A stretch of DNA of 64,000 nt from contig CAYNGY010000001.1 of NCBI GenBank assembly GCA_964397195.1, positions 376,326 to 440,325 of the forward strand, given 5' to 3'. Positions 37,791 to 64,000 of the stretch are shown one piece after another. The stretch's first letter is position 1. Each line of letters opens with the position of its first letter. The position numbers were made by a program, and so were the translations under genes. The notes beneath the pieces were generated by a model. The model was not told where the DNA came from, did no database searches, and worked only from the letters and a program-made list of their open reading frames with translations. The DNA is from an uncultured Gammaproteobacteria bacterium. GTDB lineage: Bacteria; Patescibacteriota; Patescibacteriia; SBBC01; CAIJZX01.

Positions 37791-40490
37791 ATGAGCATCC
37801 TCGGGAAACTCTTTGGAGACGCAAATACGAAGGCCGTCAAAGATCTTCAGCCACTGGTTGATGCAATCAACGCCGAAAAAGCGGCCGCGGCCGCCCGCAG
37901 CCTCGATCAGATCAAGGCGCGGATGCTCGAACTGCGCACCCAGGTGGGCGGCGATTCGAAGCACCTCGACGCGATCCTGCCGGAGGTTTTTGCCTTAACG
38001 CGTGAAGCCTCGAAGCGCACCATCGGTCTCGAGCATTTTGATGTCCAAATGATCGGCGGGATTACGCTCCACCGCGGTCAAATTTCGGAAATGCGAACTG
38101 GCGAAGGAAAAACTCTTGTCGCCACGACTGCCGTGGCGCTCAACGCCCTAACCGGGCTCGGCGTGCACGTCGTGACGGTCAACGATTACCTCGCCCGGCG
38201 CGACGCTGGCTGGATGGGCGCGGTCTACAATGCGCTCGGTCTAACGGTCGGGATAATCATTCATGAGCAGGCGTTCCAATACGATGCCGACTTTACGAAT
38301 CCTGATGCCCTCGAAGAACGCACACTCCATCTGCGCCCGATTGAACGACAACAAGCCTACGCCTGCGATATCACCTACGGGACGAATAACGAGTTTGGTT
38401 TCGACTACCTCCGCGACAACATGATTCCGGACCAGAAATATATGGTCCAACGGCCGTTTTATTACGCCATTGTCGATGAAGTAGACTCCATTTTAATCGA
38501 CGAAGCGCGAACGCCATTAATTATTTCCGCGCCAGCTGAAGAATCAACCGAACGATACCGACAATTCGCCCAAATTGTGACCACGCTCGATGCGGCGACC
38601 GACTATGCCATTGACGAAAAGCTACGCGCCGCAACGCTGACCGAGTCCGGGATCACCAAAGTTGAGAAGGCGCTTCATCTCGATAACTTGTATGCCGCCG
38701 GGGGCGTTGAGCTCGTTCATCATCTCGAGCAGGCGCTCAAAGCGCGCACCTTGTTCACCCTTGATAAAGATTATGTCGTCAAAGACGGAGAAGTTATCAT
38801 CGTTGATGAATTTACCGGCCGCTTGATGCATGGGCGACGCTACTCCGAAGGGCTCCACCAGGCGATCGAAGCGAAAGAAGGGCTCGACGTCAAACAAGAA
38901 AATTTGACCATGGCCACGGTTACCTTGCAAAACCTGTTTCGGATGTACCCGAAATTAGCTGGCATGACCGGGACCGCTGCCTCTGAAGCCGAAGAATTCC
39001 ACAAAATTTACAACCTTGACGTGACAGTCATCCCGACGAATCGGCCCATGGTGCGCAAAGACGCGCAGGATAGCGTCTACAAAAACGAGCAGGGGAAATT
39101 CATGGCCGTCGTCCGGGAAATCAAACGTCGTCAGGAATCCGGTCAGCCGGTACTCGTCGGCACGATTTCGATTGAGAAGAATGAACTGTTGTCTGAACTA
39201 TTGACCCGTGAGGGCGTGACCCACGAAGTCCTGAACGCCAAGAACCACGAACGCGAAGCGCAGATTATCGCCCAAGCTGGTCGCCCGGGTGCGGTCACCT
39301 TGGCCACGAACATCGCCGGTCGCGGCGTTGACATCATCCTCGGCGGGACGCCTCCCACGCCCGAGGCGGCGGAAAAAGCCAAGCAGGCCGGCGGTCTCCA
39401 CGTCCTCGGTACCGAGCGACATGAGTCACGACGTATCGATAACCAACTTCGTGGACGTTCCGGACGGCAAGGTGACCCGGGGTCAAGTCAGTTCTTTGTG
39501 TCGATGGAAGATGACCTGATGCGCATCTTCGGGTCTGATCGGATGAAATCGCTGATGGATCGGATGGGTGTGCCGGATGATATGCCAATTGAATCGGGGA
39601 TCGTTAGCCGCTCGATTGAGCAAGCCCAGAAAAAAGTCGAAGGTCACAACTTTGATACTCGGAAGCATCTCGTCGAATACGATGACGTCATGAATAAACA
39701 CCGCGAGGTCATCTACAAACGGCGACGGGAGATTCTCGTCGGGCCCGCGGCGGACATGATTCCGAAAGTGAAAGAGATAGTCGAAAAAGAAATTCATCAC
39801 GTCGTGGCCTTCCACACCGCCGCCGAGCACGTCCACGACTGGGACCTCGACGCGGTCTACAACGCTATCAACGCCATGTGCGTCTTGGAAGTGAAGGATC
39901 GGTTAGCGCTGGAGGAGCTGAAAGGTGGTGACGGCCTGTCCGACGCGGCGGCCCGAACGAAAATTATCGAACGCCTCGTCGCCCACGCCAATGCCTCGCT
40001 TGATGATCTTGCTAGCCAGGCCCCAGACCCGGCAGTTTTCCCCGAGGTGGTGCGGAATGTGATGTTACGAACGATCGATCAGCTCTGGGTCGAGCACCTC
40101 GAGCACGTCGATCGTTTGCGTGAGGGGATTGGGCTTCGTGGCTACGCCCAGCGCGAACCGCTGGTGGAATACAAGAAAGAAGCCTACGAACTCTTCTCCC
40201 GCTTAATTCACTCGATCAATACCCAGATCGCCAACACGATCTTTAAGGTCACCATTGCCCCAGCCTCACAAATGGCCGCCCAACCGAAACAGAATCTGCA
40301 ACTCTCCGCCCCGCAGAAAGAAGCGACGGAAAACCGCTCGTCCATCGGACTCAAATTCGACAACCCGATCGTGCATGGCGTCGATATTTCGAAAGTTGGC
40401 CGAAATGACGAGTGCCCGTGCGGTTCAGGCAAGAAGTTCAAGAAATGCTACTTAGCAAACGACCCCGGCTGTAAACTGCGCCAGGGCTAA
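37791..40490 (+). CDS. secA: Preprotein translocase ATPase SecA
   Basis: It is 899 aa with the DEAD motor motifs. The C-terminal zinc finger is CPCGSGKKFKKCY. Confidence 0.95.
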   Translation: MSILGKLFGDANTKAVKDLQPLVDAINAEKAAAAARSLDQIKARMLELRTQVGGDSKHLDAILPEVFALTREASKRTIGLEHFDVQMIGGITLHRGQISEMRTGEGKTLVATTAVALNALTGLGVHVVTVNDYLARRDAGWMGAVYNALGLTVGIIIHEQAFQYDADFTNPDALEERTLHLRPIERQQAYACDITYGTNNEFGFDYLRDNMIPDQKYMVQRPFYYAIVDEVDSILIDEARTPLIISAPAEESTERYRQFAQIVTTLDAATDYAIDEKLRAATLTESGITKVEKALHLDNLYAAGGVELVHHLEQALKARTLFTLDKDYVVKDGEVIIVDEFTGRLMHGRRYSEGLHQAIEAKEGLDVKQENLTMATVTLQNLFRMYPKLAGMTGTAASEAEEFHKIYNLDVTVIPTNRPMVRKDAQDSVYKNEQGKFMAVVREIKRRQESGQPVLVGTISIEKNELLSELLTREGVTHEVLNAKNHEREAQIIAQAGRPGAVTLATNIAGRGVDIILGGTPPTPEAAEKAKQAGGLHVLGTERHESRRIDNQLRGRSGRQGDPGSSQFFVSMEDDLMRIFGSDRMKSLMDRMGVPDDMPIESGIVSRSIEQAQKKVEGHNFDTRKHLVEYDDVMNKHREVIYKRRREILVGPAADMIPKVKEIVEKEIHHVVAFHTAAEHVHDWDLDAVYNAINAMCVLEVKDRLALEELKGGDGLSDAAARTKIIERLVAHANASLDDLASQAPDPAVFPEVVRNVMLRTIDQLWVEHLEHVDRLREGIGLRGYAQREPLVEYKKEAYELFSRLIHSINTQIANTIFKVTIAPASQMAAQPKQNLQLSAPQKEATENRSSIGLKFDNPIVHGVDISKVGRNDECPCGSGKKFKKCYLANDPGCKLRQG

Positions 40491-42199: not shown

Positions 42200-43582
42200 A
42201 TGAAACATTCAATCTGGGCTATCGCGGCTGTGGTCGCGATCTGTGCTGTGGTTCGTATACCACACGCCTCTGCGGCGACGTATAGTCGTACCTCGGAGCT
42301 TGTTATTCCCGCGACCGGAACCTCGGTCACGCTTTTTGATGGACGATTCACCGGGGGTGCATCGATCGCCGCGGCAGATATTACCGGTGATGGGGTTGAT
42401 GAATATATTGTTGGAGCCGGGCAGGGCAGTACGCCGATTGTCCAAGTCCTCGATGCGAATGGCGAGGTAATAACGTCATGGATGCCCTACAAAGAAAATT
42501 TTCGTGGCGGGGTGAATGTTGCCGCCGGCGATCTTGATGGTGACGGCCAAGCCGAGATCGTCACCGCGCCGCTGAGTGATGCCCCGGCCACTATTCGCGT
42601 CTTCAAAAATACCGGTGGAATTATTAGTTCATTTCGGGCTTTTGACAGTCGCTATCATGAAGGGGCGAACATCGCCGTGCTCGAGGCCATGCCTGATTCG
42701 CCGGGGCGAATTATTGTCAGCACCCGAGGCTTGCGAAAGAATGAGGCGCTCGTCTATGCGACGAACGGAAATTTGGTGCGCCGAATTTCCACCGACGTCG
42801 GGCGTGATCACCAAACCGGAGTGACGGTTGCCGCGGGATGGAGCGATGCCTGGCACGAACGAATCATTGTCTTCGGTGCGGGACGTGATAGTGCGCCGCG
42901 GGTTATGGTCTACGGACTAGATTCAAAAAAAGTCTTGCTGACCTGGATGGCATTTAAAGGAACGATGACCACTGGCGTCTCGATTAGCTATCGAAACAAT
43001 GTCGTGGCAGTCGCTCCGCTCGGCCTTGGTGTTCCGACTATTCGAACGTTCACCGCGATCGGGGATCGGATCGGCGATGTGGACGTCTTCGAGTCGACCT
43101 TCCGTGGCGGGGTGAACGTGGCCCTGTCTGCCGCTGGGTCTGGGGTGACGGTGGCGGCGGTCCCGAACAAAGCCAATCCAAGCCAGGCGAAAGTCAATGG
43201 CAAGAAAATCCTGGTTAACCTCAAGAAACAAGAATTATACCTCGTGGAAAATGGGACGGTCATTTCCACCCGACGCATCTCATCTGGCAAGTGGGGAACC
43301 CCGACGCCGGTCGGAACATTTAAGACGCGAAATAAAATAACGGTCGCGTATTCGAAACCATACAAGTTGTACATGGAATACTGGATGGCCATTACCGCCG
43401 ACGGGAAGTACGGGTTGCATTCGTTACCATATTGGAAAACAAAGAACGGAAAACTTTACGAAGGCGCCGCCCATATTGGAACACCCGTATCGCATGGGTG
43501 TATCCGCCAAACGGTGGCCGAGGCCAAGTCACTCTATGATTGGGCGCCGGTTGGCACCCCCGTCGTCATCAGCAAGGGGTAG
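42200..43582 (+). CDS. Secreted FG-GAP repeat protein with C-terminal L,D-transpeptidase (YkuD) domain
   Basis: It has a signal peptide MKHSIWAIAAVVAICAVV...ASA and FG-GAP/VCBS-like repeats (GDLDGDGQAEIV, DITGDGVDEYIV). The C-terminal catalytic region has SHGCIRQ (the HGC of LDTs). Confidence 0.8.
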   Translation: MKHSIWAIAAVVAICAVVRIPHASAATYSRTSELVIPATGTSVTLFDGRFTGGASIAAADITGDGVDEYIVGAGQGSTPIVQVLDANGEVITSWMPYKENFRGGVNVAAGDLDGDGQAEIVTAPLSDAPATIRVFKNTGGIISSFRAFDSRYHEGANIAVLEAMPDSPGRIIVSTRGLRKNEALVYATNGNLVRRISTDVGRDHQTGVTVAAGWSDAWHERIIVFGAGRDSAPRVMVYGLDSKKVLLTWMAFKGTMTTGVSISYRNNVVAVAPLGLGVPTIRTFTAIGDRIGDVDVFESTFRGGVNVALSAAGSGVTVAAVPNKANPSQAKVNGKKILVNLKKQELYLVENGTVISTRRISSGKWGTPTPVGTFKTRNKITVAYSKPYKLYMEYWMAITADGKYGLHSLPYWKTKNGKLYEGAAHIGTPVSHGCIRQTVAEAKSLYDWAPVGTPVVISKG

Positions 43583-43643: not shown

Positions 43644-45281
43644 ATGCGTCGTCGTAATGTATGGCTGGCCATGGCTGGCATCGTCCTCCTGACCGCCACT
43701 GTCGGATTCGTCGATTGGCCACACAGTTGGTCTTTAAACTGGGGGCCGCTCAAGCGTGATTTGAACTTGCGGCTTGGTTTAGACCTGCGAGGCGGGACGA
43801 GTTTGGTGTATCAGGCTGATGTGACGAATGTGCCCGATGCTGACCGCGGATCGGCCCTCGATGGCGTCCGCGATGTTATTGAGCGACGCGTGAACGCCTT
43901 TGGAGTCTCCGAGCCGGTTGTGCAGACGAGCCAGGTCGGTAGTCAGTATCGTGTCAGCGTTGACCTCGCCGGAATCACCGATATCTCCCAAGCAATTAAA
44001 TTGATCGGGGAAACGCCACTCCTTGAGTTCCGTGAAGCGAAGGGACTGAGTGATACTGAGGCCAAGACGAAGGCCGATGATGTTTTAAAGAAGGTCAACA
44101 CACCAAAAGCGGACTTTGGCGCCTTAGCCAAGGAATTTTCCGATGACGCCGGTTCGAAGTCGAACGGCGGTGACTTGGGGTGGGCGAAAAAAGGCACCTT
44201 TGTGACCGAGTTCGATGCGGCCCTCTTTGATCAGTTGAAGGACGGACAAGTGACGAGAGCGCCGATCAAGACGCAATTCGGCTACCATATCATCAAACGA
44301 ATTGCGACGCGGGAAACCGATCAAGATGGGACGAAGGTGACCGAGATTCACGCCGCCCATATTTTAATCATGACCGCGGATGGTGCGGCTGCGGCCGGGC
44401 AGTACACAACGACCGAATTAACCGGTAAGCAACTGAAGCGGGCCGATGTGAGCTTCGACCAACAAACCGGTCAGCCGGAAGTCGCCCTGACCTTTAGTAG
44501 CGAAGGGGCTAAGTTGTTCCAGGACATTACGAAGCGGAACATCGGAAAGATCCTCGCGATTTACCTTGATGGGTCGCCGATCAGTACACCCCAAGTGAAC
44601 CAGGAGATTGTTGGTGGCCAGGCCGTAATCAATGGGAACTTTACAGTTCAAGAAGTGAAGCAGTTGGCTCAGCGCCTGAATGCCGGGGCCTTACCCGTGC
44701 CGATCACCTTGATGAGCCAGCAAAATATCGGAGCCAGTCTCGGCAAAGAATCCGTCGAGCGGAGTGTTGCGGCCGGAATTATCGGTCTGGCGCTGGTTGC
44801 CCTCTTCATGATCTTAATGTACCGACTCCCGGGCGTAATCGCGGTAGTAGCGCTTGGCGTCTATTCCTTGTTAGTCTTAGCCATATTCAAGCTCTGGCCG
44901 GTCACCCTGACCTTGGCTGGGATCGCCGGGTATGTGCTGTCGATCGGTATGGCAGTTGATGCCAACATCCTCGTCTTTGAACGGACGAAAGAGGAATTGC
45001 GGGATGGCCGGCCGCTATTAAGTGCGATTGAAGAGGGCTTCCGACGTGCCTGGCTTTCGATTCGCGACTCGAATGTATCGAGTCTCATCACCTGTCTGAT
45101 TCTGATTTGGTTTGGTTCGAGTTTGATTAAAGGATTCGCCGTCACACTCGCCCTCGGTATTTTGGTTTCGATGTTCACCGCCTTGACTGTCAGTCGGACA
45201 TTCTTGCGAGTATCGGTTAGCCACTGGATGGAGAAGCATCTCTGGTTATTCGGACATGGGCTGACCAAGAAGGAATACTAG
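43644..45281 (+). CDS. secD: Protein translocase subunit SecD with embedded parvulin-type PPIase module
   Basis: SecD motifs (LGLDLRGGTSLVYQ) and the C-terminal 6-TM core are present. Between them lies ADFGALAKEFSDDAGSKSNGGDLGWAKKGTFVTEFDAALF...PIKTQFGYHIIKR, a clear PpiC/parvulin signature, followed by HAAHILI. Confidence 0.85.
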   Translation: MRRRNVWLAMAGIVLLTATVGFVDWPHSWSLNWGPLKRDLNLRLGLDLRGGTSLVYQADVTNVPDADRGSALDGVRDVIERRVNAFGVSEPVVQTSQVGSQYRVSVDLAGITDISQAIKLIGETPLLEFREAKGLSDTEAKTKADDVLKKVNTPKADFGALAKEFSDDAGSKSNGGDLGWAKKGTFVTEFDAALFDQLKDGQVTRAPIKTQFGYHIIKRIATRETDQDGTKVTEIHAAHILIMTADGAAAAGQYTTTELTGKQLKRADVSFDQQTGQPEVALTFSSEGAKLFQDITKRNIGKILAIYLDGSPISTPQVNQEIVGGQAVINGNFTVQEVKQLAQRLNAGALPVPITLMSQQNIGASLGKESVERSVAAGIIGLALVALFMILMYRLPGVIAVVALGVYSLLVLAIFKLWPVTLTLAGIAGYVLSIGMAVDANILVFERTKEELRDGRPLLSAIEEGFRRAWLSIRDSNVSSLITCLILIWFGSSLIKGFAVTLALGILVSMFTALTVSRTFLRVSVSHWMEKHLWLFGHGLTKKEY

Positions 45282-45282
45282 T

Positions 45283-46191
45283 ATGCTGCGAATTATTCAA
45301 AAGCGAAACTGGCTCTTCGGCTTCTCGGCGGTAGTCCTCATCCCGGGAATCGTCGCCTTGGCCGTTTTCGGTCTTAAGCTTGGGCTCGACTTCACCGGTG
45401 GCACAAAGCTGACGGCTACCTTCAGCCAAATCCGTCCAGATGGTCCGGCGGTGGCGGAAAAAATCAAGACCCTGAATATTGGCGGCGTCACCGCGCAGAC
45501 AGCAGGGGAGAAGGAGATGATTATCCGGCTGGCCACCATCACGGATGAACAGCGACAGCAAGTAAATTCGACCCTCTCGAGCGCCTATCCTGGCTACAGC
45601 GAAACAGCCTTTGATTCCGTTGGACCAACGATTGGTGCGGAGCTCCTCCGCCGCGCCATGTACGCCATCATTCTTGTGCTGGCCGCGATCGTGTTGTATA
45701 TCAGCTGGGCATTCCGAAAAGTCGGAATTGGTCCGGTGCCGGCGTGGGTCTATGGTGTATCGGCGATCATCGCCCTTGTCCACGACCTCTTCGTCGTTAT
45801 TGGCATCTTCGCTATCCTCGGTCACTACGCCGGGATCGAAGTTGATTCGTTATTCGTGACTGCGCTCTTAACCGTCCTCGGGTTCTCGGTTCATGATACC
45901 ATCGTCGTTTTCGATCGCGTTCGCGAGCGTCTCATTCGTGGGCAGGAGTCGTCCTTTGAGGAAACCGTCAACGTCAGCTTAAACCAAACGCTTGTTCGTT
46001 CGCTGGCGACGTCGTTTACCACACTTTTGGTTCTAGCGGCGCTCTATTTCTTCGGCGGTCAGTCAATCCAGAACTTTACGCTCGCCTTGTTGGTCGGTAT
46101 TGCTAGCGGGACGTATTCGTCAATCTTCGTGGCGACCCCATTATTGGTGGTTTACGATGAGTGGCGAAAACGACGTCATGGGCGTCGATAG
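45283..46191 (+). CDS. secF: Protein translocase subunit SecF
   Basis: It has the SecF architecture and motifs (FSVHDTIVVFDRVRE). Confidence 0.9.
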   Translation: MLRIIQKRNWLFGFSAVVLIPGIVALAVFGLKLGLDFTGGTKLTATFSQIRPDGPAVAEKIKTLNIGGVTAQTAGEKEMIIRLATITDEQRQQVNSTLSSAYPGYSETAFDSVGPTIGAELLRRAMYAIILVLAAIVLYISWAFRKVGIGPVPAWVYGVSAIIALVHDLFVVIGIFAILGHYAGIEVDSLFVTALLTVLGFSVHDTIVVFDRVRERLIRGQESSFEETVNVSLNQTLVRSLATSFTTLLVLAALYFFGGQSIQNFTLALLVGIASGTYSSIFVATPLLVVYDEWRKRRHGRR

Positions 46192-46253
46192 GGTTGGGGC
46201 GTAGGGCTGGCCGGGCACCGATTTCGGCCGTTATTTTATTTCACCCCAGATTC

Positions 46254-46282
46254 TTGACACCCCGGCAAATATGTGCTATATT
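46254..46282 (+). promoter_or_regulatory. Consensus sigma70 promoter
   Basis: The sequence is TTGACA, a 17-nt spacer, then TATATT. It lies about 20 nt upstream of the ATG at 46305. Confidence 0.6.
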
Positions 46283-46304
46283 ATGGATGTACGTAGATCC
46301 GGAT

Positions 46305-47459
46305 ATGGAAGACACTTCAACTAGCGGATCGATCCTCGATCGGATCATTAGCAGCCAACAGACCGAAACCCTCGAACATTTCGACCCGGTTGCGGTTGTG
46401 GCTGAATTACTGAAAACGCTGACCACGAAGGAGGCGGACATTGTTCGTCGTCGGTTTGGTTTGGGCCAGCAACCGGCCGAGACCCTCGAGACGATTGGTG
46501 CGTCATATAACGTCACCCGCGAACGGGTCCGTCAGATTCAACGTTGGGCGGTTGATCGATTACGTAAATCAGATGCGGCTAAGCGCCATTTACGGAGCGT
46601 CGACATGTTGCTTCAACAGTTATTCGAAGAGCACGGTGGCCTGATGCCGGACGATGAATTATTCGCCGCGTTGACCGCGCACGCTAATCGAGATTCACAA
46701 ACGCAAGCGGCCACGACGTTCATTTTAGAAGAATTGTTAGCGGATAAGTTCACGAAGGTTGAAACGAAAGAGTATCAGCCGTTTTGGAAACCGACCTACG
46801 TCACGATTGCCAATCTCCCGCTCGTCATTAATGTCGCGGTTCAGCTCCTCTCAACGGCCGGTAAGCCGCTGCCGAGTGCTGATGTGATTGATCAGTTATT
46901 GCATGCTTCGGAACTCAGTACACAATCCCTGACCTCGACGATTGTCCAAACATATTTAAATGTTTCTACGGCGATTGATAAAAATCCGTACGGCGAGTAC
47001 GGACTTCGGTCATGGGGGAGTATTGTCCCGAAACGGATGAACGATAAGATACTGATGATACTGCGAAAGGCTGGTCAGCCGATGCACTTTGTTGAGATTA
47101 CAAAAAAGATTAATGAGATTGGCTTCGATCGCCGCAAAGCCTATCCGCCGACGGTCCATAATGAGTTGATTTTGAACCCCGAGTACGTTTTGGTCGGTCG
47201 CGGAATCTACGCCCTGAAGGAATGGGGATACAAACCAGGTGTGGTCGCGGATGTGATTGCGGCCTTAATTACCGAACGTGGACCGATGGATCGCGACGCG
47301 ATCGTTGATGAAGTGTTAAAACAGCGAATGGTGAAAAAAAATACAATTCACCTCGCTCTCACAAACAAACAGCGGTTTGCCCGATTACCGGATGGCCGGT
47401 ACGCGTTGGCGAGTGACCGTCCGGCTCAGCCGGCGGAAACCGCGCCAAGCGCCCAATGA
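46305..47459 (+). CDS. DNA-binding protein with sigma-70 region 4 HTH (N-terminal) and HARE-HTH-like domain (C-terminal)
   Basis: The track ORF is 46161..47459. The start is trimmed to MEDTSTS, downstream of the promoter. EADIVRRRFGLGQQPAETLETIGASYNVTRERVRQIQRWAVDRLRK is sigma70 region 4.2-like. The C-terminal YVLVGRGIYALKEWGY resembles the HARE-HTH (RNAP delta N-domain) motif. Confidence 0.6.
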   Translation: MEDTSTSGSILDRIISSQQTETLEHFDPVAVVAELLKTLTTKEADIVRRRFGLGQQPAETLETIGASYNVTRERVRQIQRWAVDRLRKSDAAKRHLRSVDMLLQQLFEEHGGLMPDDELFAALTAHANRDSQTQAATTFILEELLADKFTKVETKEYQPFWKPTYVTIANLPLVINVAVQLLSTAGKPLPSADVIDQLLHASELSTQSLTSTIVQTYLNVSTAIDKNPYGEYGLRSWGSIVPKRMNDKILMILRKAGQPMHFVEITKKINEIGFDRRKAYPPTVHNELILNPEYVLVGRGIYALKEWGYKPGVVADVIAALITERGPMDRDAIVDEVLKQRMVKKNTIHLALTNKQRFARLPDGRYALASDRPAQPAETAPSAQ

Positions 47460-48814
47460 CGGATTTTCTCGTTATACCCACCTTCGATAATCCGCTCGCG
47501 TCCATGTGGTGGATCCTAAGCCATGGCGGTTTTATTATTCTCCTCTGGGCGATCGGGTACGGCATTTGGCTTGTCTATCTCGACTATATCCAGACCGAGT
47601 TCGCAAAAAAAACAAAATACACCTTGCTGGCCATTGATGTGCCGAAAGAAAACGAACAAACGCCAAAAGCGGTTGAACACATCTTCAGCCATTTTCATGG
47701 GATTCAGAAAAATCCGAATGCGAAAGCGAAGTACCTCGAAGGGTTTGTTCAGCCGACAATCTCGGTCGAGCTCATCTCGATTGACGGCTACATTCAATAT
47801 CTGGTGCGGACGCCAACCGCCAGCCGGGACCTCGTTGAGGCGGCGATCTATGCCCAATACCCGAACGCTGAATTAACGGAAGTTGAAGACTACACGGAGG
47901 GTTTCAAGTCAGTTTTCCCAAATCCAGATTACAATATGTGGGGTGGGGAAATTGTTTTTACGAATGCTGATGCGTATCCGATCCGGACCTATCCTTCCTG
48001 GGAGCACAGCCTGACCCAAACCTTTCTCGACCCGATGGCGTCCCTCTTGGAAATCATGAACCGCTTACAGGCCGGTGAACAAATTTGGCTCCAGTTCGTG
48101 TTGGCCCCAACATCCGGATCTGACTTTAAGAAAAAGGGGTTAGAGGTCATTAATAAACTGATCGGCGCCAAAGCCAAGAAGAAAGTCAGCAAGCTCGAAG
48201 AATTCATGCAAGTGCCTGGAAATATTGCCCTCGGGACCTGGAATACATTGACGAACACCCTGATTACCCCGGTGGAAGCTGGCCCAGCGGCAAAAAAAGA
48301 TACCAAAGACGTCCCGAACCAGTTACAATACACGCCGCCACACGTCCGGGCGGTCGTCGAGGCGATTGGGGTTAAAATCTCGAAACTCGCTTTTGAAACC
48401 AAGTTTCGCTTCGTCTACATGGCCAAACCGGATATCTTCAACGGCAATCGGATCGCGGGCGTCCTTGGTGCGATGAAGCAGTTCGGCACCATGGATATGA
48501 ACGGCTTTAAGCCGCATAAGACCATGAAAACCGCTCGCGACTACGGATTTGTGGAGCGTCGGGTGAACCAGTTGCGTCGACTCATTCTCGCCCAATATAA
48601 ACACCGTTCCATGTCTGGTGGTAACCCAATTACCATGAACATTGAAGAGCTCGCGTCGATCTGGCACTTCCCGGTCATCACGGTCAAGGCGCCGTTGGTC
48701 CAAAAGATGGACGCCAAGCGCGGTGAGCCGCCAACATCGCTCCCGATCGGTGATTACAACCCACCGGAGTTACAAGAAGAATCTAACTTGCCGCCGAATC
48801 TACCGGTTGCCTAA
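47456..48814 (+). CDS. Hypothetical membrane-anchored protein (N-terminal TM, large cytoplasmic domain)
   Basis: It is 452 aa with a single hydrophobic helix (MWWILSHGGFIILLWAIGYGIWLVYL). No recognised domain was found. It overlaps its neighbours' starts and stops, so it is cotranscribed. Confidence 0.55.
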   Translation: MTDFLVIPTFDNPLASMWWILSHGGFIILLWAIGYGIWLVYLDYIQTEFAKKTKYTLLAIDVPKENEQTPKAVEHIFSHFHGIQKNPNAKAKYLEGFVQPTISVELISIDGYIQYLVRTPTASRDLVEAAIYAQYPNAELTEVEDYTEGFKSVFPNPDYNMWGGEIVFTNADAYPIRTYPSWEHSLTQTFLDPMASLLEIMNRLQAGEQIWLQFVLAPTSGSDFKKKGLEVINKLIGAKAKKKVSKLEEFMQVPGNIALGTWNTLTNTLITPVEAGPAAKKDTKDVPNQLQYTPPHVRAVVEAIGVKISKLAFETKFRFVYMAKPDIFNGNRIAGVLGAMKQFGTMDMNGFKPHKTMKTARDYGFVERRVNQLRRLILAQYKHRSMSGGNPITMNIEELASIWHFPVITVKAPLVQKMDAKRGEPPTSLPIGDYNPPELQEESNLPPNLPVA

Positions 48815-48816
48815 TT

Positions 48817-50553
48817 ATGCCTACGCTGACGCCACCACCACCAACCGACATTGCGGTCTTCGGCCGCACGAATTTTCGTGGGCAGTTACGACCATTTGGT
48901 ATCAAAACCGATGACCGGCGGCGTCACATGTATGTGATTGGGAAAACCGGGATGGGTAAATCGACCCTTTTAGAAAACATGATCGTCCAAGATATCCGCG
49001 CTGGTCGCGGGCTCGCGTTTGTTGATCCGCACGGCGATACCGTCGAAAAACTGTTAGACTATATCCCTTCGTACCGGATGAATGACGTGGTCTATTTTAA
49101 CCCGTCGGACGTGGACTTTCCAATCGCCTTCAACGTTTTAGAATCGATTAACGCCACGCAGCGCGCCCTGACCGCGTCCGGGCTCGTTTCTATTTTTAAG
49201 AAGATTTGGGCCGACTCGTGGGGGCCGCGATTAGAGTACATTCTCCGCAATACGATCTTGGCGCTCGTTGAGTACCCGGGCTCAACATTGCTCGGCGTGA
49301 CCCGCATGCTCGTTGATCGTGATTACCAACGGAAGGTCGTGGCGAGTCTCTCCGACCCGATCGTCAAAGCCTTTTGGCAAACAGAATTCAACGGGTACGA
49401 ACAGAAATTTCGAACGGAAGCGGTCGCACCGATTCAAAACAAAATTGGTCAATTCCTTTCCAGCTCAGTTATTCGGAATATCGTTGGTCAGCCGAAATCA
49501 ACGATCGATATGCGCGAGATTATGGATAGCGGGAAGATCTTACTCCTCAACCTGTCAAAAGGACGCATCGGTGAGGATAATGCCGCTTTACTCGGCGCCA
49601 TGATGATCACGAAAATTCAGTTGGCAGCCATGAGTCGCATCGATATTCCAGAAAAGGAACGTCGGGACTTCTTCTTGTATGTTGACGAATTCCAAAACTT
49701 TGCGACGGAATCATTTGCCAACATTTTATCCGAGGCCCGAAAATACCACCTCGATCTGATCATGGCTCACCAGTATATCGAACAGCTGGACGAGACGGTT
49801 CGCGCCGCGGTATTCGGCAACGTCGGGACGATCATTACCTTCCGTGTCGGCGCAACGGACGCCGAATTCTTGGCAAAAGAATACATGCCGATCTTTACGG
49901 AAACAGATCTCGTCAATCTGACAAAATTCGATATGTATCTGAAGCTGATGATTGATGGGGTTGCGTCCGAACCGTTTTCCGCCAGCGGGCTGCCGCCGGT
50001 ACTGGCGCAGGCGCCCGAAGGTCTTGCAGAAACGGTCGCCAAGGTATCTCGTGAACGGTATGCGAAAACCCGAGAAATAGTCGAAGAAAAAATTACCCGC
50101 TGGTCAGGCGTCGAGGAAACGATGATGGCCACAGCGGCTGCGGAAAATCGTTTCCAGCGTCGTTCCGATCAGACTCGTGACGAAGAGCCCGTTGTGTACG
50201 AACGCGCCGCACCAGTAGTAACGGAAAATATTCCCGAGCCAATCTCCCTCTCGCAGGCACTTCAAGCGGAGACGCCACGCGCCCCGCGGCCAAACAATGA
50301 TCGATCACCGCGACCACCACAGCGTCCGGACAGTAGTGGGCGCCCGCGACGTCATCGTTCTCGATCCGCCGGAAACCGCCGCCCACCACCATCAGGAGCA
50401 CCGTCACCCGACTCGCGCATGTCTTTGTCATCGTTGCCGCCGCGCCCGGAAAAACGGGTTGAGCCGCCAGTCCAAACCCCGCCACCCATTACACCTCCGC
50501 CAGCGCCAACTACCGGTACGACACTAACGCCCGGACAGGTCGTCAAGATATAA
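48817..50553 (+). CDS. FtsK/HerA/VirD4-superfamily P-loop ATPase with disordered Pro/Arg-rich C-tail
   Basis: It has Walker A YVIGKTGMGKST, Walker B FLYVDEFQNF, and the downstream ARKYHLDLIMAHQYIEQLDETVRAAVFGNVGTIITF motif typical of DUF87/TraG-D_C ATPases. The C-terminal roughly 120 aa are low complexity (PRPPQRP..., PPPITPPPAP). Confidence 0.65.
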   Translation: MPTLTPPPPTDIAVFGRTNFRGQLRPFGIKTDDRRRHMYVIGKTGMGKSTLLENMIVQDIRAGRGLAFVDPHGDTVEKLLDYIPSYRMNDVVYFNPSDVDFPIAFNVLESINATQRALTASGLVSIFKKIWADSWGPRLEYILRNTILALVEYPGSTLLGVTRMLVDRDYQRKVVASLSDPIVKAFWQTEFNGYEQKFRTEAVAPIQNKIGQFLSSSVIRNIVGQPKSTIDMREIMDSGKILLLNLSKGRIGEDNAALLGAMMITKIQLAAMSRIDIPEKERRDFFLYVDEFQNFATESFANILSEARKYHLDLIMAHQYIEQLDETVRAAVFGNVGTIITFRVGATDAEFLAKEYMPIFTETDLVNLTKFDMYLKLMIDGVASEPFSASGLPPVLAQAPEGLAETVAKVSRERYAKTREIVEEKITRWSGVEETMMATAAAENRFQRRSDQTRDEEPVVYERAAPVVTENIPEPISLSQALQAETPRAPRPNNDRSPRPPQRPDSSGRPRRHRSRSAGNRRPPPSGAPSPDSRMSLSSLPPRPEKRVEPPVQTPPPITPPPAPTTGTTLTPGQVVKI

Positions 50554-56203: not shown

Positions 56204-57237
56204 ACGCTTCCCGTCGCGCCATTCTTCGTCTGACCGGTTGGTATGTTTGTATTTTGATGGTCTTGAGTGTTGGATTTAGTACGGTCATTTACCAAATCGC
56301 CAATCAAAACATCCGGCGGGGATTACCGCCCCGTGTCCGGTTTACCCAAGATTTTGAGGACCGCTTTGGTCGGACTCCGAATGATCAGTGGGCCGAGTTG
56401 ATTGAAGAGAGTTACCGGGACGCCATGACGCGTTTGCGCTGGTCGCTCCTCGTATTAAACCTCGTCGTCCTAGCCGGCGGCGCCTACGTGAGTTATCTCT
56501 TAGCTCGCCGAACATTACGTCCGGTCGAGCAGGCGCTCGAAGATCAACGTCGGTTCGCCTCGGATGCATCCCATGAGTTGCGGACGCCATTGGCGGCGAT
56601 GAAAACGGAAATTGAGGTGGCGCTACGTGCCCGTGATACTCCTTCGCACACGGCGGTCTTGCGCAGTAATCTCGAAGAGATTAACCGACTGGAAAAACTT
56701 TCATCCGATTTGCTTCGATTGGCCCGTCATGACGACCAACCAACCAAACCGCCGCTCGTCCCGACCAGCATCACTGCCATAACGAAGGCCGCCATCGATC
56801 GTGTCATGGACAGCGCCAAAAAAAAGGAGATGACGATTCGGGTTGAAGGTGAAGCCGGGACGATTCTGGCAGAACCATCCGGCTTGACGGAATCGCTCGT
56901 CACCATCCTCGATAACGCAATCAAGTATAGCCCAGCCCGGTCCGTAGTTGTCATCACGTCGACTCGGGATGTCGCCAGCGTTATGATCGCGGTTCGCGAT
57001 CAGGGCGTCGGTATCCCGCCAGAAGATTTACCTCATATTTTTGAACGATTTTATCGCGCTGACCCGTCACGTACAAAACTTCATACCGACGGTCATGGTC
57101 TCGGCCTCGCGATTGCGAAAGCCATGGTTGAGCGAATGGGCGGAACAATTCGTGCGACGAGTGACTTCGGTCACGGCGCGGACGTCACCATCACGCTTCC
57201 AGTTTCAAGAACATCAGTCACTCCTCACTCATCCTAA
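56200..57237 (+). CDS. Sensor histidine kinase
   Basis: It has two TM segments, an H-box HELRTPLAAM, and the G-boxes DQGVGIP and GHGLGLAIAK. Confidence 0.9.
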   Translation: MNASRRAILRLTGWYVCILMVLSVGFSTVIYQIANQNIRRGLPPRVRFTQDFEDRFGRTPNDQWAELIEESYRDAMTRLRWSLLVLNLVVLAGGAYVSYLLARRTLRPVEQALEDQRRFASDASHELRTPLAAMKTEIEVALRARDTPSHTAVLRSNLEEINRLEKLSSDLLRLARHDDQPTKPPLVPTSITAITKAAIDRVMDSAKKKEMTIRVEGEAGTILAEPSGLTESLVTILDNAIKYSPARSVVVITSTRDVASVMIAVRDQGVGIPPEDLPHIFERFYRADPSRTKLHTDGHGLGLAIAKAMVERMGGTIRATSDFGHGADVTITLPVSRTSVTPHSS

Positions 57238-57241
57238 TCAT

Positions 57242-58654
57242 ATGCGGAAACGAACCATACTTATCTCGATTGCAGCCATCGCTTTGGCGGTCGTCGGGTA
57301 CTTCGTATTTTTTAAGAAAGATGCAAGCGGCGTAACCTACCAAACCGGGACGGTTGAAAAAGGGACATTAGTTGTATCGATCTCTACATCGGGGACAACG
57401 ACCGCGGTTAACCGCATTGGCATTACCACCGGTGTGACCGGCAAAATTACCAGCGTCCTCGTCAAAGACGGCGACACGGTAAAGGTGGGCCAAACTATTA
57501 TGCGGGTGGATTTGGATGATACTGGTGACGCGGCCCTGCTCAAAGCAAAATCAACGCTGCTTGCGGCCCAGCAGGCCGTGACGACTGCCCAGCAGGCCGT
57601 GACGAATTTAAGTTCCGACGTCACGACCGCCCAAGACGGAGTTACACAAGCGAAGCAGAATAAGGTCCAGTTACACCGCGAGGTGTTGAACGCGGAGAAT
57701 GCGGTAATCAAGGCCCAGGAAGAATACGACGCTGCGGTATCTGGTGGGCAATCCACGACGACAATTTCGACGAAACTGAACGATCTGGACGCGGCCAAAG
57801 ATTCCTTGACGATTGCCAAGTCTAAGTACGCGTCCGCTGATGCGAGCATCAGTAAAGCGAAGACGAATGTCACGACTGTCAAAAGCCGCTCCGTATCGCT
57901 CAACGACGCTGTCACCAAAGCGAAAAATGACCTAACGACCGCCCAGGAAGGATACAACGATGCGACTGGCACGATTCGCGCGCCGGTTGCTGGAACCGTG
58001 GCGGATCTAACGTATGCCACGGGCATGACGATTCTAGCTTCGACTCCATCAGGAGCGGGCGCCGCGGCAGCGACAAAGGTTGCGAGCATCGTCACCGACA
58101 CGCTACCAACAGCATCGTTTTCTGTCGCTGAGGCCGATGCGCCGAAGATTAAGGCTGGGCAAAAAGCCACACTGACGTTTGATTCGATTACGGACAAAAC
58201 GTTTACCGGGACGGTCATCGGCATCGACCGTAGTGGGAGTGTGTCATCTGGTGTGACGAGCTACCCGATGACGATTCGACTTGATGATGCAAATGACGAA
58301 ATCTTGCCGAACATGGCCGTGACGGCGAACGTTATCACCAAAACCATTGCGGACGTACTTCTTGTTCCAAATAGTGCCGTAAAAACTTCCGGAACCGCGC
58401 ATACAGTGGAAGTCATGACCGATGGGAAGGTATCGTCAGTCGCGGTCGAGATCGGCGAGGCGTCAGAGGCTCAAACGGTTATCACCAGTGGCCTGACCGC
58501 CGGTCAGACCGTTGTCACGGCGACGATTACGGCGGCGACGACTAACGCCGCGAGATCATCATCGGCGTCTTCGCTCTTCGGTGGCACGACTACCCGCGGT
58601 GGAGCGGGCACGACCGTTATCTCCGGTGGCTTCCCGGGTGGTCCACCAAACTAG
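57242..58654 (+). CDS. Efflux adaptor subunit (HlyD/MacA family) with long coiled coil
   Basis: The start is trimmed to MRKRTILISIAAIALAV. It has biotinyl/lipoyl-like hairpin flanks and a long alpha-helical hairpin. Confidence 0.8.
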   Translation: MRKRTILISIAAIALAVVGYFVFFKKDASGVTYQTGTVEKGTLVVSISTSGTTTAVNRIGITTGVTGKITSVLVKDGDTVKVGQTIMRVDLDDTGDAALLKAKSTLLAAQQAVTTAQQAVTNLSSDVTTAQDGVTQAKQNKVQLHREVLNAENAVIKAQEEYDAAVSGGQSTTTISTKLNDLDAAKDSLTIAKSKYASADASISKAKTNVTTVKSRSVSLNDAVTKAKNDLTTAQEGYNDATGTIRAPVAGTVADLTYATGMTILASTPSGAGAAAATKVASIVTDTLPTASFSVAEADAPKIKAGQKATLTFDSITDKTFTGTVIGIDRSGSVSSGVTSYPMTIRLDDANDEILPNMAVTANVITKTIADVLLVPNSAVKTSGTAHTVEVMTDGKVSSVAVEIGEASEAQTVITSGLTAGQTVVTATITAATTNAARSSSASSLFGGTTTRGGAGTTVISGGFPGGPPN

Positions 58655-58658
58655 GTTT

Positions 58659-59348
58659 ATGATGATTGAAACTGACAAACTGTCGAAGGTCTACGAGATA
58701 GGTGATGTTCGGACGGTCGCCCTTGATGCGGTCTCGTTCACCGTTGATGCTGGTGAGTTCGTGGCTATCATGGGACCATCGGGCAGTGGCAAATCAACCC
58801 TGATGCACATGCTCGGGGCACTCGATACACCGACCTCGGGGACATATCGGTTGAACGGGCACGACGTCAGCCGAATGGATGACGATCAACTCGCCGATAT
58901 TCGCAATCGCCAAATAGGATTTGTTTTTCAAGCCTACAACCTCCTTCCGCGCACGACGGCCGCGAAGAACGTGATGTTACCCATGGCCTACGCGGGGGTG
59001 AAACGATCCGAGCGACTGGGCCGGGCCAAGGCGCTCCTCAAAAAAGTTGGACTGGCGGATCGGACTGAGCACGCCTCAAATCAACTCTCCGGCGGCCAAC
59101 AGCAACGGGTAGCCATTGCCAGGGCGATGGCGCTTGACCCAGCCATCATCCTCGCCGACGAGCCGACGGGGAACCTCGCCACCGCCCAAAGTGACGAAAT
59201 CATGCGCGTCTTTAGTGACTTGAATGCGGCCGGGCACACCATCGTCATGATTACCCACGAGCCAAGTGTCGCCCGGTATGCGAAGCGGGTTATGACGCTC
59301 CGTGACGGGAAGATTGTTTCTGATATTCGTCAAAAACCCCATGCTTGA
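58659..59348 (+). CDS. ABC transporter ATP-binding protein (MacB/LolD-like)
   Basis: It has Walker A GPSGSGKST, the signature LSGGQQQRVAIARA, and Walker B ILADEPTG. Confidence 0.9.
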   Translation: MMIETDKLSKVYEIGDVRTVALDAVSFTVDAGEFVAIMGPSGSGKSTLMHMLGALDTPTSGTYRLNGHDVSRMDDDQLADIRNRQIGFVFQAYNLLPRTTAAKNVMLPMAYAGVKRSERLGRAKALLKKVGLADRTEHASNQLSGGQQQRVAIARAMALDPAIILADEPTGNLATAQSDEIMRVFSDLNAAGHTIVMITHEPSVARYAKRVMTLRDGKIVSDIRQKPHA

Positions 59349-60567
59349 TTCACGTGAACTCCTGACGACATCCGTCGATGCCTTAGCCCGGAACAAAACC
59401 CGGACCGCGTTGGCTGGGCTCGGCATCGTCATTGGTATTGGCGCTGTGATTGGGCTAATGTCACTCGGCGAGGCCAGTAAAAACTCGGTGGCGTCACAAA
59501 TCGAGACCCTCGGTTCAAACCTGTTGACCGTCTCACCTGGGGCGACACGGAGCTCGGGGAATGTTCGGGGCGGATTTGGGAGCGCGACCACCTTGACCAC
59601 CGAAAATGCGCAGACCATTTCCGCCGAACATATCGCCGGCATTGAATATGTTTCGCCAGAGCTGAGTAGTCGGTACCAAGTGACGGCCGGAAGTAACAAC
59701 ACGAACACGCAGGTGGTAGGCGGGACGGATGTTTATGCATCGGTCCATGCAGTTACCTTGTCCTCTGGCGTATTCTTTACTGCGCGTGATGTGGAATCAA
59801 ACGGTCGCGTCGCCGTGATCGGCCCACAAGTCGCTTCGGATTTGTTTGGTGATACCGCTAGCGGTGTGGGGAGCACCATCCGCATTAATCGGCTAGCGTT
59901 TACGGTCGTCGGGATAACAACGGCCAAGGGCGGATCCGGTTTCCAGAATCAAGATGACATCATTTACATTCCGCTGGGGACCATGCAGAAGCAATTAGTT
60001 GGGAAGTCGTATCTCAGTTCCATCGCCATTAAAGTGGCGGACAAAACGGACATGACAACGACGGCGAATACGGTCGGGTACGTCCTCTTACGGGAACATA
60101 ATTTGACCGACACGACCGCGGCCGATTTCCGGATCGTTTCTCAAGAAGACATTCTCGGAGCGGCGACGCAAGTGACCGGTACGATGACGACGCTCTTATC
60201 CGGTATCGCGGCTATTTCACTCCTCGTTGGCGGGATCGGCATCATGAACATCATGCTCGTGACCGTCATCGAGCGGACCCGGGAAATCGGACTACGCAAA
60301 GCATTGGGTGCCCGACGAAAAACCATTATCGCCCAGTTCCTGACCGAAGCCATTCTCCTGACCTTCGCCGGTGGCATTCTCGGCATTGTCCTCGGACTGA
60401 TTATCTCCGCGGTCGCGGCCAAGCTACTGTCGTTGCCAGTGACCTTGTCGAGTTTTGGGGTGATGCTCTCGGTTGGTGTTTCGGTCGGGATCGGCGTGCT
60501 CTTTGGTTGGTATCCCGCCCAAAAAGCTTCTCGACTCGCACCAATCGAAGCGCTTCGTTATGAATAA
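59341..60567 (+). CDS. ABC transporter permease (MacB/FtsX family)
   Basis: The start is trimmed to MLDSRELL. It has the MacB periplasmic domain and an FtsX 4-TM C-terminus. Confidence 0.85.
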   Translation: MLDSRELLTTSVDALARNKTRTALAGLGIVIGIGAVIGLMSLGEASKNSVASQIETLGSNLLTVSPGATRSSGNVRGGFGSATTLTTENAQTISAEHIAGIEYVSPELSSRYQVTAGSNNTNTQVVGGTDVYASVHAVTLSSGVFFTARDVESNGRVAVIGPQVASDLFGDTASGVGSTIRINRLAFTVVGITTAKGGSGFQNQDDIIYIPLGTMQKQLVGKSYLSSIAIKVADKTDMTTTANTVGYVLLREHNLTDTTAADFRIVSQEDILGAATQVTGTMTTLLSGIAAISLLVGGIGIMNIMLVTVIERTREIGLRKALGARRKTIIAQFLTEAILLTFAGGILGIVLGLIISAVAAKLLSLPVTLSSFGVMLSVGVSVGIGVLFGWYPAQKASRLAPIEALRYE

Positions 60568-61032: not shown

Positions 61033-61046
61033 ATGGATGGACGGAA

Positions 61047-61076
61047 AGCCACCCAGCCCCCTGGGTGGCTTTTTGT
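61047..61076 (+). terminator. Intrinsic terminator
   Basis: The hairpin is AGCCACCCAG-cccc-CTGGGTGGCT followed by TTTTTG. Confidence 0.7.
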
Positions 61077-61113
61077 TGCATTCGGTTCAAAAAAGTGGTA
61101 TGGTATTTTCACC

Positions 61114-62928: not shown

Positions 62929-63584
62929 TGGGGTATTTACTCGCCACGATTGCAATTGGCGAGCTGATTTTTGGCCTATATTTCATATTAAAGAGTAACT
63001 ACAGGCAGTCAGCTTGGTGGTTGGGATTGTTTATGATCAGTACTTCCATTTATGTGGCAGGTAATGCATTTGGGTACTTAAATTTTTGGACGTCCGACTT
63101 GAACGAACAAATCGCATGGTCAGGTGGGATACTCGCAACGGCCAGCTTTTTACCCTTTAGCTTTTCTTACCCATACCAAAAACACGCATTCTCGGAGATG
63201 CTGATATTAATTTTGTGGCCGGCGGTGATTTTTATTCCCGGGATTTTCTTTTCAAACTCATTTTTGCGGCTTAATGCCGATGTAAGCTTTGGGGCCGGGT
63301 ATCGAACGGCTTCCGGCGAGTTATTCTTTCTGGTGTTAATATTTTTTGCTAGTTATTGGTTCATCGGTATTTACGAGTTAGCAAGACTGTTGTTGAAATC
63401 GGATGGATCCATAAGAATGAATACAAAGATTATGTTGGCAGGCATACTTACTTCTCTAGCAATTGTCTCATTCTTTGATATTTACCTCCCACTAAAAACA
63501 GTGACGTCGCTTGGTTTTCTGGGGTCACTTGCTACCTCAATTTGGTTGGGGGCAACAACATATATTATTACCTCAAAAAAATGA
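62928..63584 (+). CDS. Polytopic membrane protein (7TM-like), AT-rich gene
   Basis: The ATG at 62928 overlaps the alaS stop. It has about 7 hydrophobic helices. GC is much lower than in the rest of the window. Confidence 0.55.
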   Translation: MGYLLATIAIGELIFGLYFILKSNYRQSAWWLGLFMISTSIYVAGNAFGYLNFWTSDLNEQIAWSGGILATASFLPFSFSYPYQKHAFSEMLILILWPAVIFIPGIFFSNSFLRLNADVSFGAGYRTASGELFFLVLIFFASYWFIGIYELARLLLKSDGSIRMNTKIMLAGILTSLAIVSFFDIYLPLKTVTSLGFLGSLATSIWLGATTYIITSKK

Positions 63585-64000
63585 AATACAGGATATTTCG
63601 TAAGTTAAGAAATGCATACAATAGCATTAACTTCTTTTTAAACTACAAAAATATTTTTGACAACTTTGATTTTTATATTAATAAAACTAACAGCGCCTCT
63701 GAATTAGAGGAGTTGTATAGACTGAGATACAAAGTATACTGTGAAGAATACAAATACATCGATCAAGATAAGCATCCCAATAAATTTGAAACTGATGAAT
63801 ATGATCAGTATTCCGATCATTTTGTCATGCGGGATAAGACACACGAGATAGCGGCAATGGTAAGGGTCATCAAGTACTCTCGGGAAGGTTTTCCATTGGA
63901 GAAATTTTTTCAACGCAATGTTCAGCTAAGTCAAGATGATCAAGAAAAAACAGTAGAAATATCAAGATTAATAGTTGCACAAAAATATAGAAAAAAGGGA
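63581..64000 (+). CDS. GNAT-fold N-acyltransferase, LuxI/FeeM-like N-acyl amino acid synthase (partial, runs off window end)
   Basis: This ORF is not in the supplied track because no stop occurs before the window end. The ATG at 63581 (ATGA overlap) gives MKYRIFRKLRNAYNS...ELYRLRYKVYCEEYKYIDQDKHPNKFETDEYDQYSDHFVMRDKTHEIAAMVRVI...EISRLIVAQKYRKKG. The E.D.YD....H.V pattern and the basic N-terminus fit the autoinducer-synthase-like GNAT family. Confidence 0.55.
   Translation, partial: MKYRIFRKLRNAYNSINFFLNYKNIFDNFDFYINKTNSASELEELYRLRYKVYCEEYKYIDQDKHPNKFETDEYDQYSDHFVMRDKTHEIAAMVRVIKYSREGFPLEKFFQRNVQLSQDDQEKTVEISRLIVAQKYRKKG

Follow-up and report, generated by a model that had tools for sequence, protein, structure and literature searches.

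A parvulin domain with permuted strand order embedded in the SecD of Patescibacteria

SecDF and the parvulins of the Sec translocon

In the SecDF complex the P1 head rotates between F and I forms and carries an amphiphilic cavity for which precursor-protein binding has been proposed, and movements of the head driven by the proton motive force (PMF) are thought to pull substrates from SecYEG (PMC8082313). Parvulin-type proteins are also found at this site. PpiD/YfgM touches chains leaving SecY and may block their backsliding, and some of the Sec-associated chaperone parvulins, including that of PpiD, are catalytically inactive (PMC8082313), such that a parvulin fold is by itself no proof of catalysis. 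In Mycoplasma pneumoniae, PrsA-like parvulin lipoproteins build a dome on SecDF-SecYEG, with the density of an emerging substrate contacting a catalytically competent PPIase domain (bioRxiv 10.1101/2025.04.25.650208), and these proteins crosslink to SecD (bioRxiv 10.1101/2024.09.05.611430).

All of these parvulins are separate polypeptides. E. coli PpiD, the partner of YfgM, has its own transmembrane (TM) anchor, SurA-like chaperone domains, and an inactive parvulin with the standard strand order. The PrsA of Firmicutes and the Mdp444/436/489 proteins of the Mycoplasma dome are lipoproteins held by non-covalent contacts and built around a chaperone scaffold of two or three subunits, and SurA is a soluble periplasmic chaperone containing two complete, unpermuted parvulins. 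A conceptual analogue in the cytoplasm is trigger factor, which also holds a PPIase at the exit of a polypeptide channel.

The SecD protein described here differs from each of these, in that one parvulin lies inside the SecD polypeptide itself. Unlike PpiD it lacks a chaperone domain, keeps the catalytic residues, and is permuted; compared to SurA, the insert corresponds to the first parvulin copy minus its β1 strand, plus the β1 strand of the second copy. Trigger factor is further removed, being FKBP-type, cytoplasmic, and docked non-covalently on the ribosome. In the literature that we searched, mostly outside subscription journals, we found no description of either a SecD-parvulin fusion or a natural permuted parvulin, and NCBIfam has no model dedicated to the fusion. 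The source annotations read merely 'protein translocase subunit SecD', and the domain architecture of the fusion in InterPro has presumably been computed automatically.

A parvulin domain within the P1 region of SecD

The window (the whole 64-kb stretch of DNA that was analysed) contains the secD gene together with genes for its partner subunit and for the Sec motor ATPase, all on the same strand. The features of the locus are as follows.

37791..40490, + strand: secA, the Sec motor ATPase, 3 kb upstream of secD (Pfam SecA_DEAD, SecA_PP_bind, SecA_SW and SEC-C)
43644..45281, + strand: secD open reading frame with an ATG start, 545 aa, encoding the SecD-parvulin fusion (ORF list; TIGR01129; Foldseek)
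43650..43715, + strand: TM1, residues 3-24 (helix 3-24 in the AlphaFold model; hydrophobic sequence)
43767..44042, + strand: Sec_GG motif and N-terminal part of P1, residues 42-133, with the IGETPLLEFRE strand at its end (Pfam; alignment to T. thermophilus SecDF 26-120)
44019..44036, + strand: LLEFRE strand, residues 126-131, SecD's own and just N-terminal of the insertion (conservation; direct coupling analysis, DCA; model)
44043..44327, + strand: parvulin module, helices α1-α4 and strands β2-β4, residues 134-228
44328..44381, + strand: displaced parvulin strand β1', residues 229-246 ('TKVTEIHAAHILIMT'), with H239 (profile test; conservation; models; DCA; SurA alignment)
44382..44408, + strand: poorly conserved linker, residues 247-255, returning into the P1 head (pairwise identity)
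44409..44699, + strand: rest of the P1 head subdomain, residues 256-352 (Pfam SecDF_P1_head; alignment to T. thermophilus SecDF from residue 160)
44706..45218, + strand: TM2-TM6 core, residues 355-525, including the conserved TM4 aspartate D439 at nt 44958-44960 (Pfam SecD_SecF_C; alignment to T. thermophilus SecDF 160-423)
45283..46191, + strand: secF, the partner subunit, 302 aa (TIGR00966, 284.8 bits against a 160-bit cutoff)

The family assignment of the 545-residue protein is clear. It matches the NCBIfam secD model TIGR01129 with 399.1 bits (cutoff 244.4 bits; residues 44-521, profile positions 1-397), and Pfam identifies Sec_GG (residues 42-59), SecD_1st (74-133) and SecD_SecF_C (355-521). 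Structure searches with the full-length model place SecDF structures on top (5yhf, 5xap, 5xan and 3aqp, with 27-32% identity), and phmmer against the T. thermophilus SecDF sequence (3AQP) gives 2.4e-84. The family and architecture are those of the canonical SecDF proteins of T. thermophilus (3AQP/5YHF) and D. radiodurans (5XAM/5XAN/5XAP), with an N-terminal TM segment, a periplasmic P1 base and head, a C-terminal bundle of five TM segments, the TM4 aspartate, and an adjacent secF. D439, the TM4 aspartate, is present in all 320 fused SecDs that we compared; the secF start codon lies 2 nt past the secD stop codon, and a same-strand secF follows secD in 75 of 80 related loci. These features are best explained by a functional SecD, which is powered by the PMF and assists the Sec translocon together with SecF. 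There is no second parvulin gene in the 64-kb window.

The departure from canonical SecDF has a defined position. Residues 33-134 align to T. thermophilus SecDF 26-120 and residues 259-522 to its residues 160-423, the corresponding gap in D. radiodurans SecDF spanning 130 to 157. From the LEFR strand to the 'LTG' strand of the head there are about 124 residues, as compared to about 26-40 in the Thermus and Deinococcus proteins, and this stretch consists of a complete parvulin domain (134-246) and a short linker. An earlier note on this DNA, made from the letters alone, had pointed to a PpiC/parvulin signature following TM1 of a SecD, and the domain searches bear this out: Pfam Rotamase (PF00639) matches residues 131-220 with an E-value of 6.9e-23 (81.9 bits against a 21.7-bit gathering threshold) and Rotamase_3 (PF13616) matches residues 128-219 with 1.4e-24 (87.3 bits; cutoff 22.5 bits), both far above chance, while SecDF_P1_head begins only at residue 256 and extends to 352, covering profile positions 18-114 only. 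The motifs that the note cited are found at residues 175-180 (GGDLGW), 212-218 (FGYHIIK), and 236-242 (HAAHILI). Neither SurA_N (PF09312, PF13623, PF13624) nor any other chaperone domain was matched in the protein by Pfam or NCBIfam, and since there is no SurA_N or trigger-factor-like chaperone domain we do not regard it as a member of the PpiD, PrsA or SurA families.

Sequence and structure comparisons of the insert agree with this assignment. Searched with phmmer against PDB sequences, it matches SurA best (E-value 2.5e-26), followed by PrsA, PEB4, Par10, Par14, and Pin1. A full-length AlphaFold model built on a 47-sequence alignment has a mean pLDDT of 78.8 and a pTM of only 0.43, with confidence highest over the insert (pLDDT 85-93); a model of the domain alone (residues 119-263) has a pLDDT of 88 and a pTM of 0.79. 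With Foldseek, significant matches were to one SurA/PpiD-like PPIase only; the search of the PDB with the full-length model returned SecDF proteins and RND transporters, and nothing on the insert. The predicted domain has the four-stranded antiparallel sheet and four helices of a parvulin, in agreement with the fold that the earlier note proposed. Its strands do not follow the canonical order, β1-α1-α2-α3-β2-α4-β3-β4, but have β1 after β4; the parvulin fold is present, in a variant topology.

Strand order, distribution and conservation

The first indication of an altered topology is that the match to the Rotamase profile does not start until its position 8-15, and thus the canonical first strand is missing upstream; the earlier note had likewise remarked that the first-strand motif trails the segment instead of preceding it, and had guessed at a circularly permuted parvulin. 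Four lines of evidence – a de-permutation test with profile HMMs, an invariant histidine, a predicted β4-β1' hairpin, and covariation – agree in supporting that guess, with the order α1-α2-α3-β2-α4-β3-β4-β1'. For the profile test, the segment 228-247 (DGTKVTEIHAAHILIMTADG) was shifted to the front of the domain and the result rescored. The PF00639 score rises from 83.3 bits (profile 15-96) to 90.7 bits (1-96), a gain of 7.4 bits, and that of PF13616 from 89.2 to 99.7 bits, a gain of 10.5. The de-permuted sequence is colinear with Pin1 and Par10. From this alignment we take H239 to be the equivalent of Pin1 H59, S166 that of S111, D168 that of C113, L178 that of L122, F186 that of M130, F190 that of F134, T210 that of T152, and H215 that of H157; the set of catalytic residues (H59, C113 or Asp, T152 and H157) and of prolyl-pocket residues (L122/M130/F134) is therefore complete, with all of them other than H239 borne by residues 134-228. 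We also considered D177 in the GGDLG motif as the catalytic aspartate and rejected it, as the Pin1/Par10 alignment gives D168 as the C113 equivalent.

Both AlphaFold models contain a long β-hairpin pairing residues 213-227 with 230-244 at a pLDDT of about 96. Covariation was analysed by mean-field DCA of 320 unique homologs, equivalent to an effective number of 218. Of the top 100 pairs, 11 belong to an antiparallel ladder between β4 and β1' compared to 0.58 expected, a number reached in none of 5000 random draws, and the ladder includes H215-L241, which matches the register of Pin1 H157-L61. Three further pairs in a single register link β2 to β1' (D177-H236, K182-V232, W180-E234), and β1' is also coupled to α1 and α4 (L194-A237, A140-I242, F186-A237). 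The LLEFRE strand, in which L127, E128 and F129 are invariant in 81 of 81 sequences, is coupled to the head strand at 253-263, which it joins in 6 of the top 100 pairs where chance would give 1.84 (P 0.013), and the DCA shows no enrichment of contacts between LLEFRE and parvulin β2 or β4. These couplings place β1' in the central β1 position between β4 and β2, and leave LLEFRE in SecD's own sheet. The best explanation is that β1', carrying H239, hairpins back onto β4, carrying H215, and completes both the four-stranded sheet and an active site composed of D168, T210, H215 and H239.

The fusion is widespread. All of the best 120 database matches (56-100% identity) are SecD proteins with a Rotamase domain, the best named relatives having about 70% identity to the SecD of the window, which probably comes from an organism close to Kerfeldbacteria, and a search seeded with a remote member (P0254) lists 120 more, 119 of them annotated as Rotamase; overall, a precomputed Rotamase annotation is present for 239 of the 240 matches listed. 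A scan of one genome per species finds at least 582 relatives by pattern, and in each of the best 80 loci the match runs over the entire junction query, placing the fusion in at least 80 species-level genomes. It is the form of SecD in every sampled relative, and all named relatives are Patescibacteria: Kerfeld-, Kuenen-, Uhr-, Buchanan-, Komeili-, Magasanik-, Falkow-, Veblen-, Nomura- and Moranbacteria, Parcubacteria, and members of the 'Patescibacteria group'. The nearest SecD neighbours of bins labelled 'uncultured Gammaproteobacteria' or 'Lysobacteraceae' carry Patescibacteria labels (57-72% identity), and we consider those bin labels unreliable. A library search with the insert only was swamped by soluble chaperones with several parvulins, whose domain scores are summed, and was not used for counting fusions. 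Candidates of 650-690 aa that might have been double-parvulin SecDs were rejected, being tandem-parvulin proteins that are not SecDs.

Conservation within the module is pronounced at the putative active site. Among the 320 unique fused SecDs, D168 is found in 313, T or S at position 210 in 319, H215 in 315, and H239 in 313, with the full Asp, Thr/Ser, His, His set in 310 (97%); conservation extends to L178, F/M186 and F190 of the pocket. In an alignment of 81 sequences the mean pairwise identity is 62-66% in the SecD core regions, 48.8% in the parvulin module, and 51.8% in the β1' strand, but only 20-28% in the linkers, TM1 and the hairpin tip (19.6% for residues 245-255 and 25% for the tip), and indels of up to about 30 aa are confined to the tip. 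From these comparisons the module is under purifying selection and is likely to be catalytically competent. An exception is a small clade (P0273-P0277) that has kept the module while losing both histidines and mostly also the aspartate; at least part of the selected function must therefore be non-catalytic, and the retention pattern indicates that binding on its own may also be selected.

Two alternative accounts of the protein bear on these observations. The parvulin could be unpermuted, with LLEFRE serving as its first strand and HAAHILI being a strand of the P1 head that resembles β1 by chance, and LLEFRE placed first does move the start of the PF00639 match from position 15 to 8, with a single weak DCA coupling, L126-Y214, pointing the same way. 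However, LLEFRE contributes only 1-2 bits as compared to the 7-10 bits, and coverage from profile position 1, gained by moving HAAHILI; it forms only a three-residue strand of low pLDDT in the domain-only model, in which β1' is at about 96; the DCA sets it with the head strand; and canonical SecDFs have no strand corresponding to the one that bears the nearly invariant H239. We consider an unpermuted domain very improbable. It is scarcely conceivable that the fusion stems from an error of assembly or gene calling, or from a chimera limited to one contig, for which the metagenome-type source of the genome is the sole argument: the architecture is uninterrupted in the 320 unique proteins, which derive from NCBI, JGI, ENA and Logan assemblies, as well as in the 80 species-level genomes, an identical protein is encoded on two independent contigs, and both the selection acting on the module and the regular presence of secF downstream speak against it.

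Proposed function and origin

The near-universal catalytic residues, together with the known non-covalent associations of parvulins with Sec, support the idea of a tethered foldase, and we think it probable that the embedded parvulin both binds substrates and helps them to fold while carried on the PMF-driven P1 head. The insertion lies directly after LLEFRE, at the N-terminal edge of the P1-head match, and for this reason the domain probably moves with the head. In the scheme that we propose, the P1 head would catch a polypeptide leaving SecYEG, swing, and pull it out, while the attached parvulin would offer the emerging chain a hydrophobic, proline-directed site. This site could hold the unfolded chain, limiting its backsliding, and the parvulin could speed prolyl cis/trans isomerisation as the chain emerges, with capture and release being supplied by the movement of the head. 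SecD-parvulin would thus do covalently what PpiD/YfgM, PrsA, and the Mycoplasma Mdp dome do non-covalently, and plausibly works like the PpiD, PrsA and SurA chaperones though it lies outside those families.

The parvulin may instead be a non-catalytic substrate-binding domain that enlarges the surface of the P1 head, comparable to the inactive parvulins of PpiD and SurA P1, with isomerisation being irrelevant. This is a possibility to be taken seriously though an unlikely one, since inactive parvulins normally lose their catalytic residues, whereas here the full set is retained in 97% of the 320 proteins (D168, H215 and H239 each in at least 98%, in rounded terms) and the prolyl pocket of L178, F186 and F190 is conserved as well. 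A mainly docking or regulatory role, in which the module would contact an envelope component, the cell wall or a host-cell surface protein, or gate the P1 head, and would not act on substrates, has only a slight chance of being correct. The exposed hairpin tip with its variable length could be an interaction surface, and Patescibacteria are often epibionts; but it is the catalytic and pocket residues that are conserved and not the tip, and the gene neighbourhood suggests no partner.

Returning to the foldase reading, a stronger form of it holds that in much of the Patescibacteria SecD-parvulin is the main or only extracytoplasmic foldase, mechanically coupled to the PMF cycle of SecDF. We regard this as doubtful, but were it true each swing of the head, driven by the PMF, would offer substrate to the PPIase and then strip it off in a repeating cycle, turning an energy-independent chaperone into an energy-coupled 'pull-and-fold' machine, and no circularly permuted parvulin would have been known from nature before this domain.

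The fusion has some bearing on Sec function more generally. Direct evidence on how SecDF handles its substrates is thin, and a lineage-wide fusion of a foldase to the P1 head would offer independent, evolutionary evidence that the head is located where unfolded chains emerge, and that tight coupling of translocation and folding is worthwhile. In the genome-reduced, monoderm-like Patescibacteria it is apparently the covalent counterpart of PpiD/YfgM, PrsA, and the Mycoplasma folding dome. It may also provide a design hint for engineered secretion hosts, because PrsA is a reported bottleneck in the overexpression of secreted proteins.

The arrangement of the permuted unit suggests how it may have arisen. 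The segment spanning β4, the linker and β1' ('PIKTQFGYHIIKRIATRETDQDGTKVTEIHAAHILIM') matches, almost without gaps, the junction between the P1 and P2 parvulins of SurA and nothing else among PDB sequences, such that β1' aligns to β1 of the second SurA parvulin; the two histidines are 24 residues apart in the insert and 23 in SurA. For soluble tandem-parvulin proteins from a representative library, too, the match to the query continues through β1'. Such matches are the prediction of the classic route to a permutation, by duplication followed by truncation at both ends, and the unit probably derives from a tandem-parvulin chaperone, with α1 through β4 contributed by the first copy and β1 by the second. 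A circular permutation of a parvulin is apparently undescribed, and an origin by duplication and truncation is plausible. No unpermuted, β1-first parvulin that could represent an evolutionary intermediate is present in SecD among the 320 sequences. Among standalone parvulins P0267 comes closest (56% identity); its relatives are named as Armatimonadetes, Planctomycetes and Saganbacteria and not as Patescibacteria, and these carry a SurA_N-type chaperone domain, unlike SecD-parvulin; no donor lineage could be named among them. Finally, we note that one protein, P0229, is the only genuine SecD with a double unit: the usual insertion site holds two permuted copies in a row, and the leading copy has lost its histidine.

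Substituted, doubled and possible ectodomain-only forms of the fused SecD

A small clade of fused SecDs (P0273–P0277), related to the remote fused SecD P0254, departs from the usual catalytic residues of the permuted parvulin. According to a residue tally, both catalytic His are substituted in these proteins (by N/L and Y) and the Asp is mostly replaced by E/K, although the module is still full-length. On these residues it looks like a pseudo-enzyme parvulin carried on SecD, to which the inactive domain of PpiD offers an analogue.

Two further homologs differ in architecture. By sequence inspection, P0229 has a tandem pair of permuted parvulin units at the usual SecD insertion site, its sequence being N-terminally truncated at IGETPLLEF; the β4 His is gone from the first unit (GFEIAKL), and an xHIL strand closes each of them (RAAHILICF and VRHILIKT). 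P0207 is 348 amino acids long with a lipobox-like N-terminus (LISGC), and contains a divergent P1-like region, the permuted parvulin and a P1 head but lacks the TM core. This could be a lipoprotein form of the SecD P1–parvulin ectodomain, or else the gene call may be truncated.

Source labels of the genomes with fusions

The SecD–parvulin fusions at genome loci L002, L009, L012, L015, L020 and about 22 others are in third-party MAGs titled 'uncultured Gammaproteobacteria bacterium' or, in one instance, 'Lysobacteraceae'. The nearest neighbours of the encoded SecDs carry Patescibacteria labels (57–72% identity), and the GC content of these MAGs is about 0.41. Their titles look wrong.

Genes surrounding secD and secF

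The following genes of the window lie to either side of secD–secF:

42200–43582, +, secreted protein with FG-GAP repeats and a C-terminal YkuD L,D-transpeptidase domain (domain matches)
46161–47459, +, Sigma70 region 4 and HARE-HTH protein lacking region 2 (domain matches)
47456–48814, +, 452-amino acid protein
48817–50553, +, TrwB/VirD4-like coupling-protein ATPase, PF10412 and TraG-D_C (domain matches)
57041–60567, +, HlyD-family membrane-fusion protein and MacB-type permease (MacB_PCD and FtsX) genes
61033–62928, +, alanyl-tRNA synthetase of only 631 amino acids (Pfam)

The FG-GAP/YkuD gene is directly upstream of secD, and its product joins an integrin-like β-propeller to a peptidoglycan cross-linking enzyme, an unusual pairing. 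With its listed GTG start, the Sigma70 region 4/HARE-HTH gene would share 31 nt with the end of secF, and the actual start is therefore probably further downstream. The 452-amino acid protein gave no match in the Pfam search, and its reading frame overlaps its neighbours by 4 nt at its ends. It lies upstream of the TrwB/VirD4-like ATPase, which has a Pro-rich C-terminal tail; orphan VirD4-like T4CP genes are reportedly common in Patescibacteria (PMC12102498).

Within the 64-kb window there is no obvious outer-membrane partner for the HlyD-family tripartite-pump adaptor, and the host genome is presumably that of a monoderm-like member of the Patescibacteria. In the alanyl-tRNA synthetase, Pfam recognises the catalytic domains tRNA-synt_2c and tRNA_SAD and nothing past residue 626. 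No tRNA genes were found across the entire window, and GC content drops to 0.45 over its last 2 kb (62001–64000), compared to 0.50–0.59 elsewhere.
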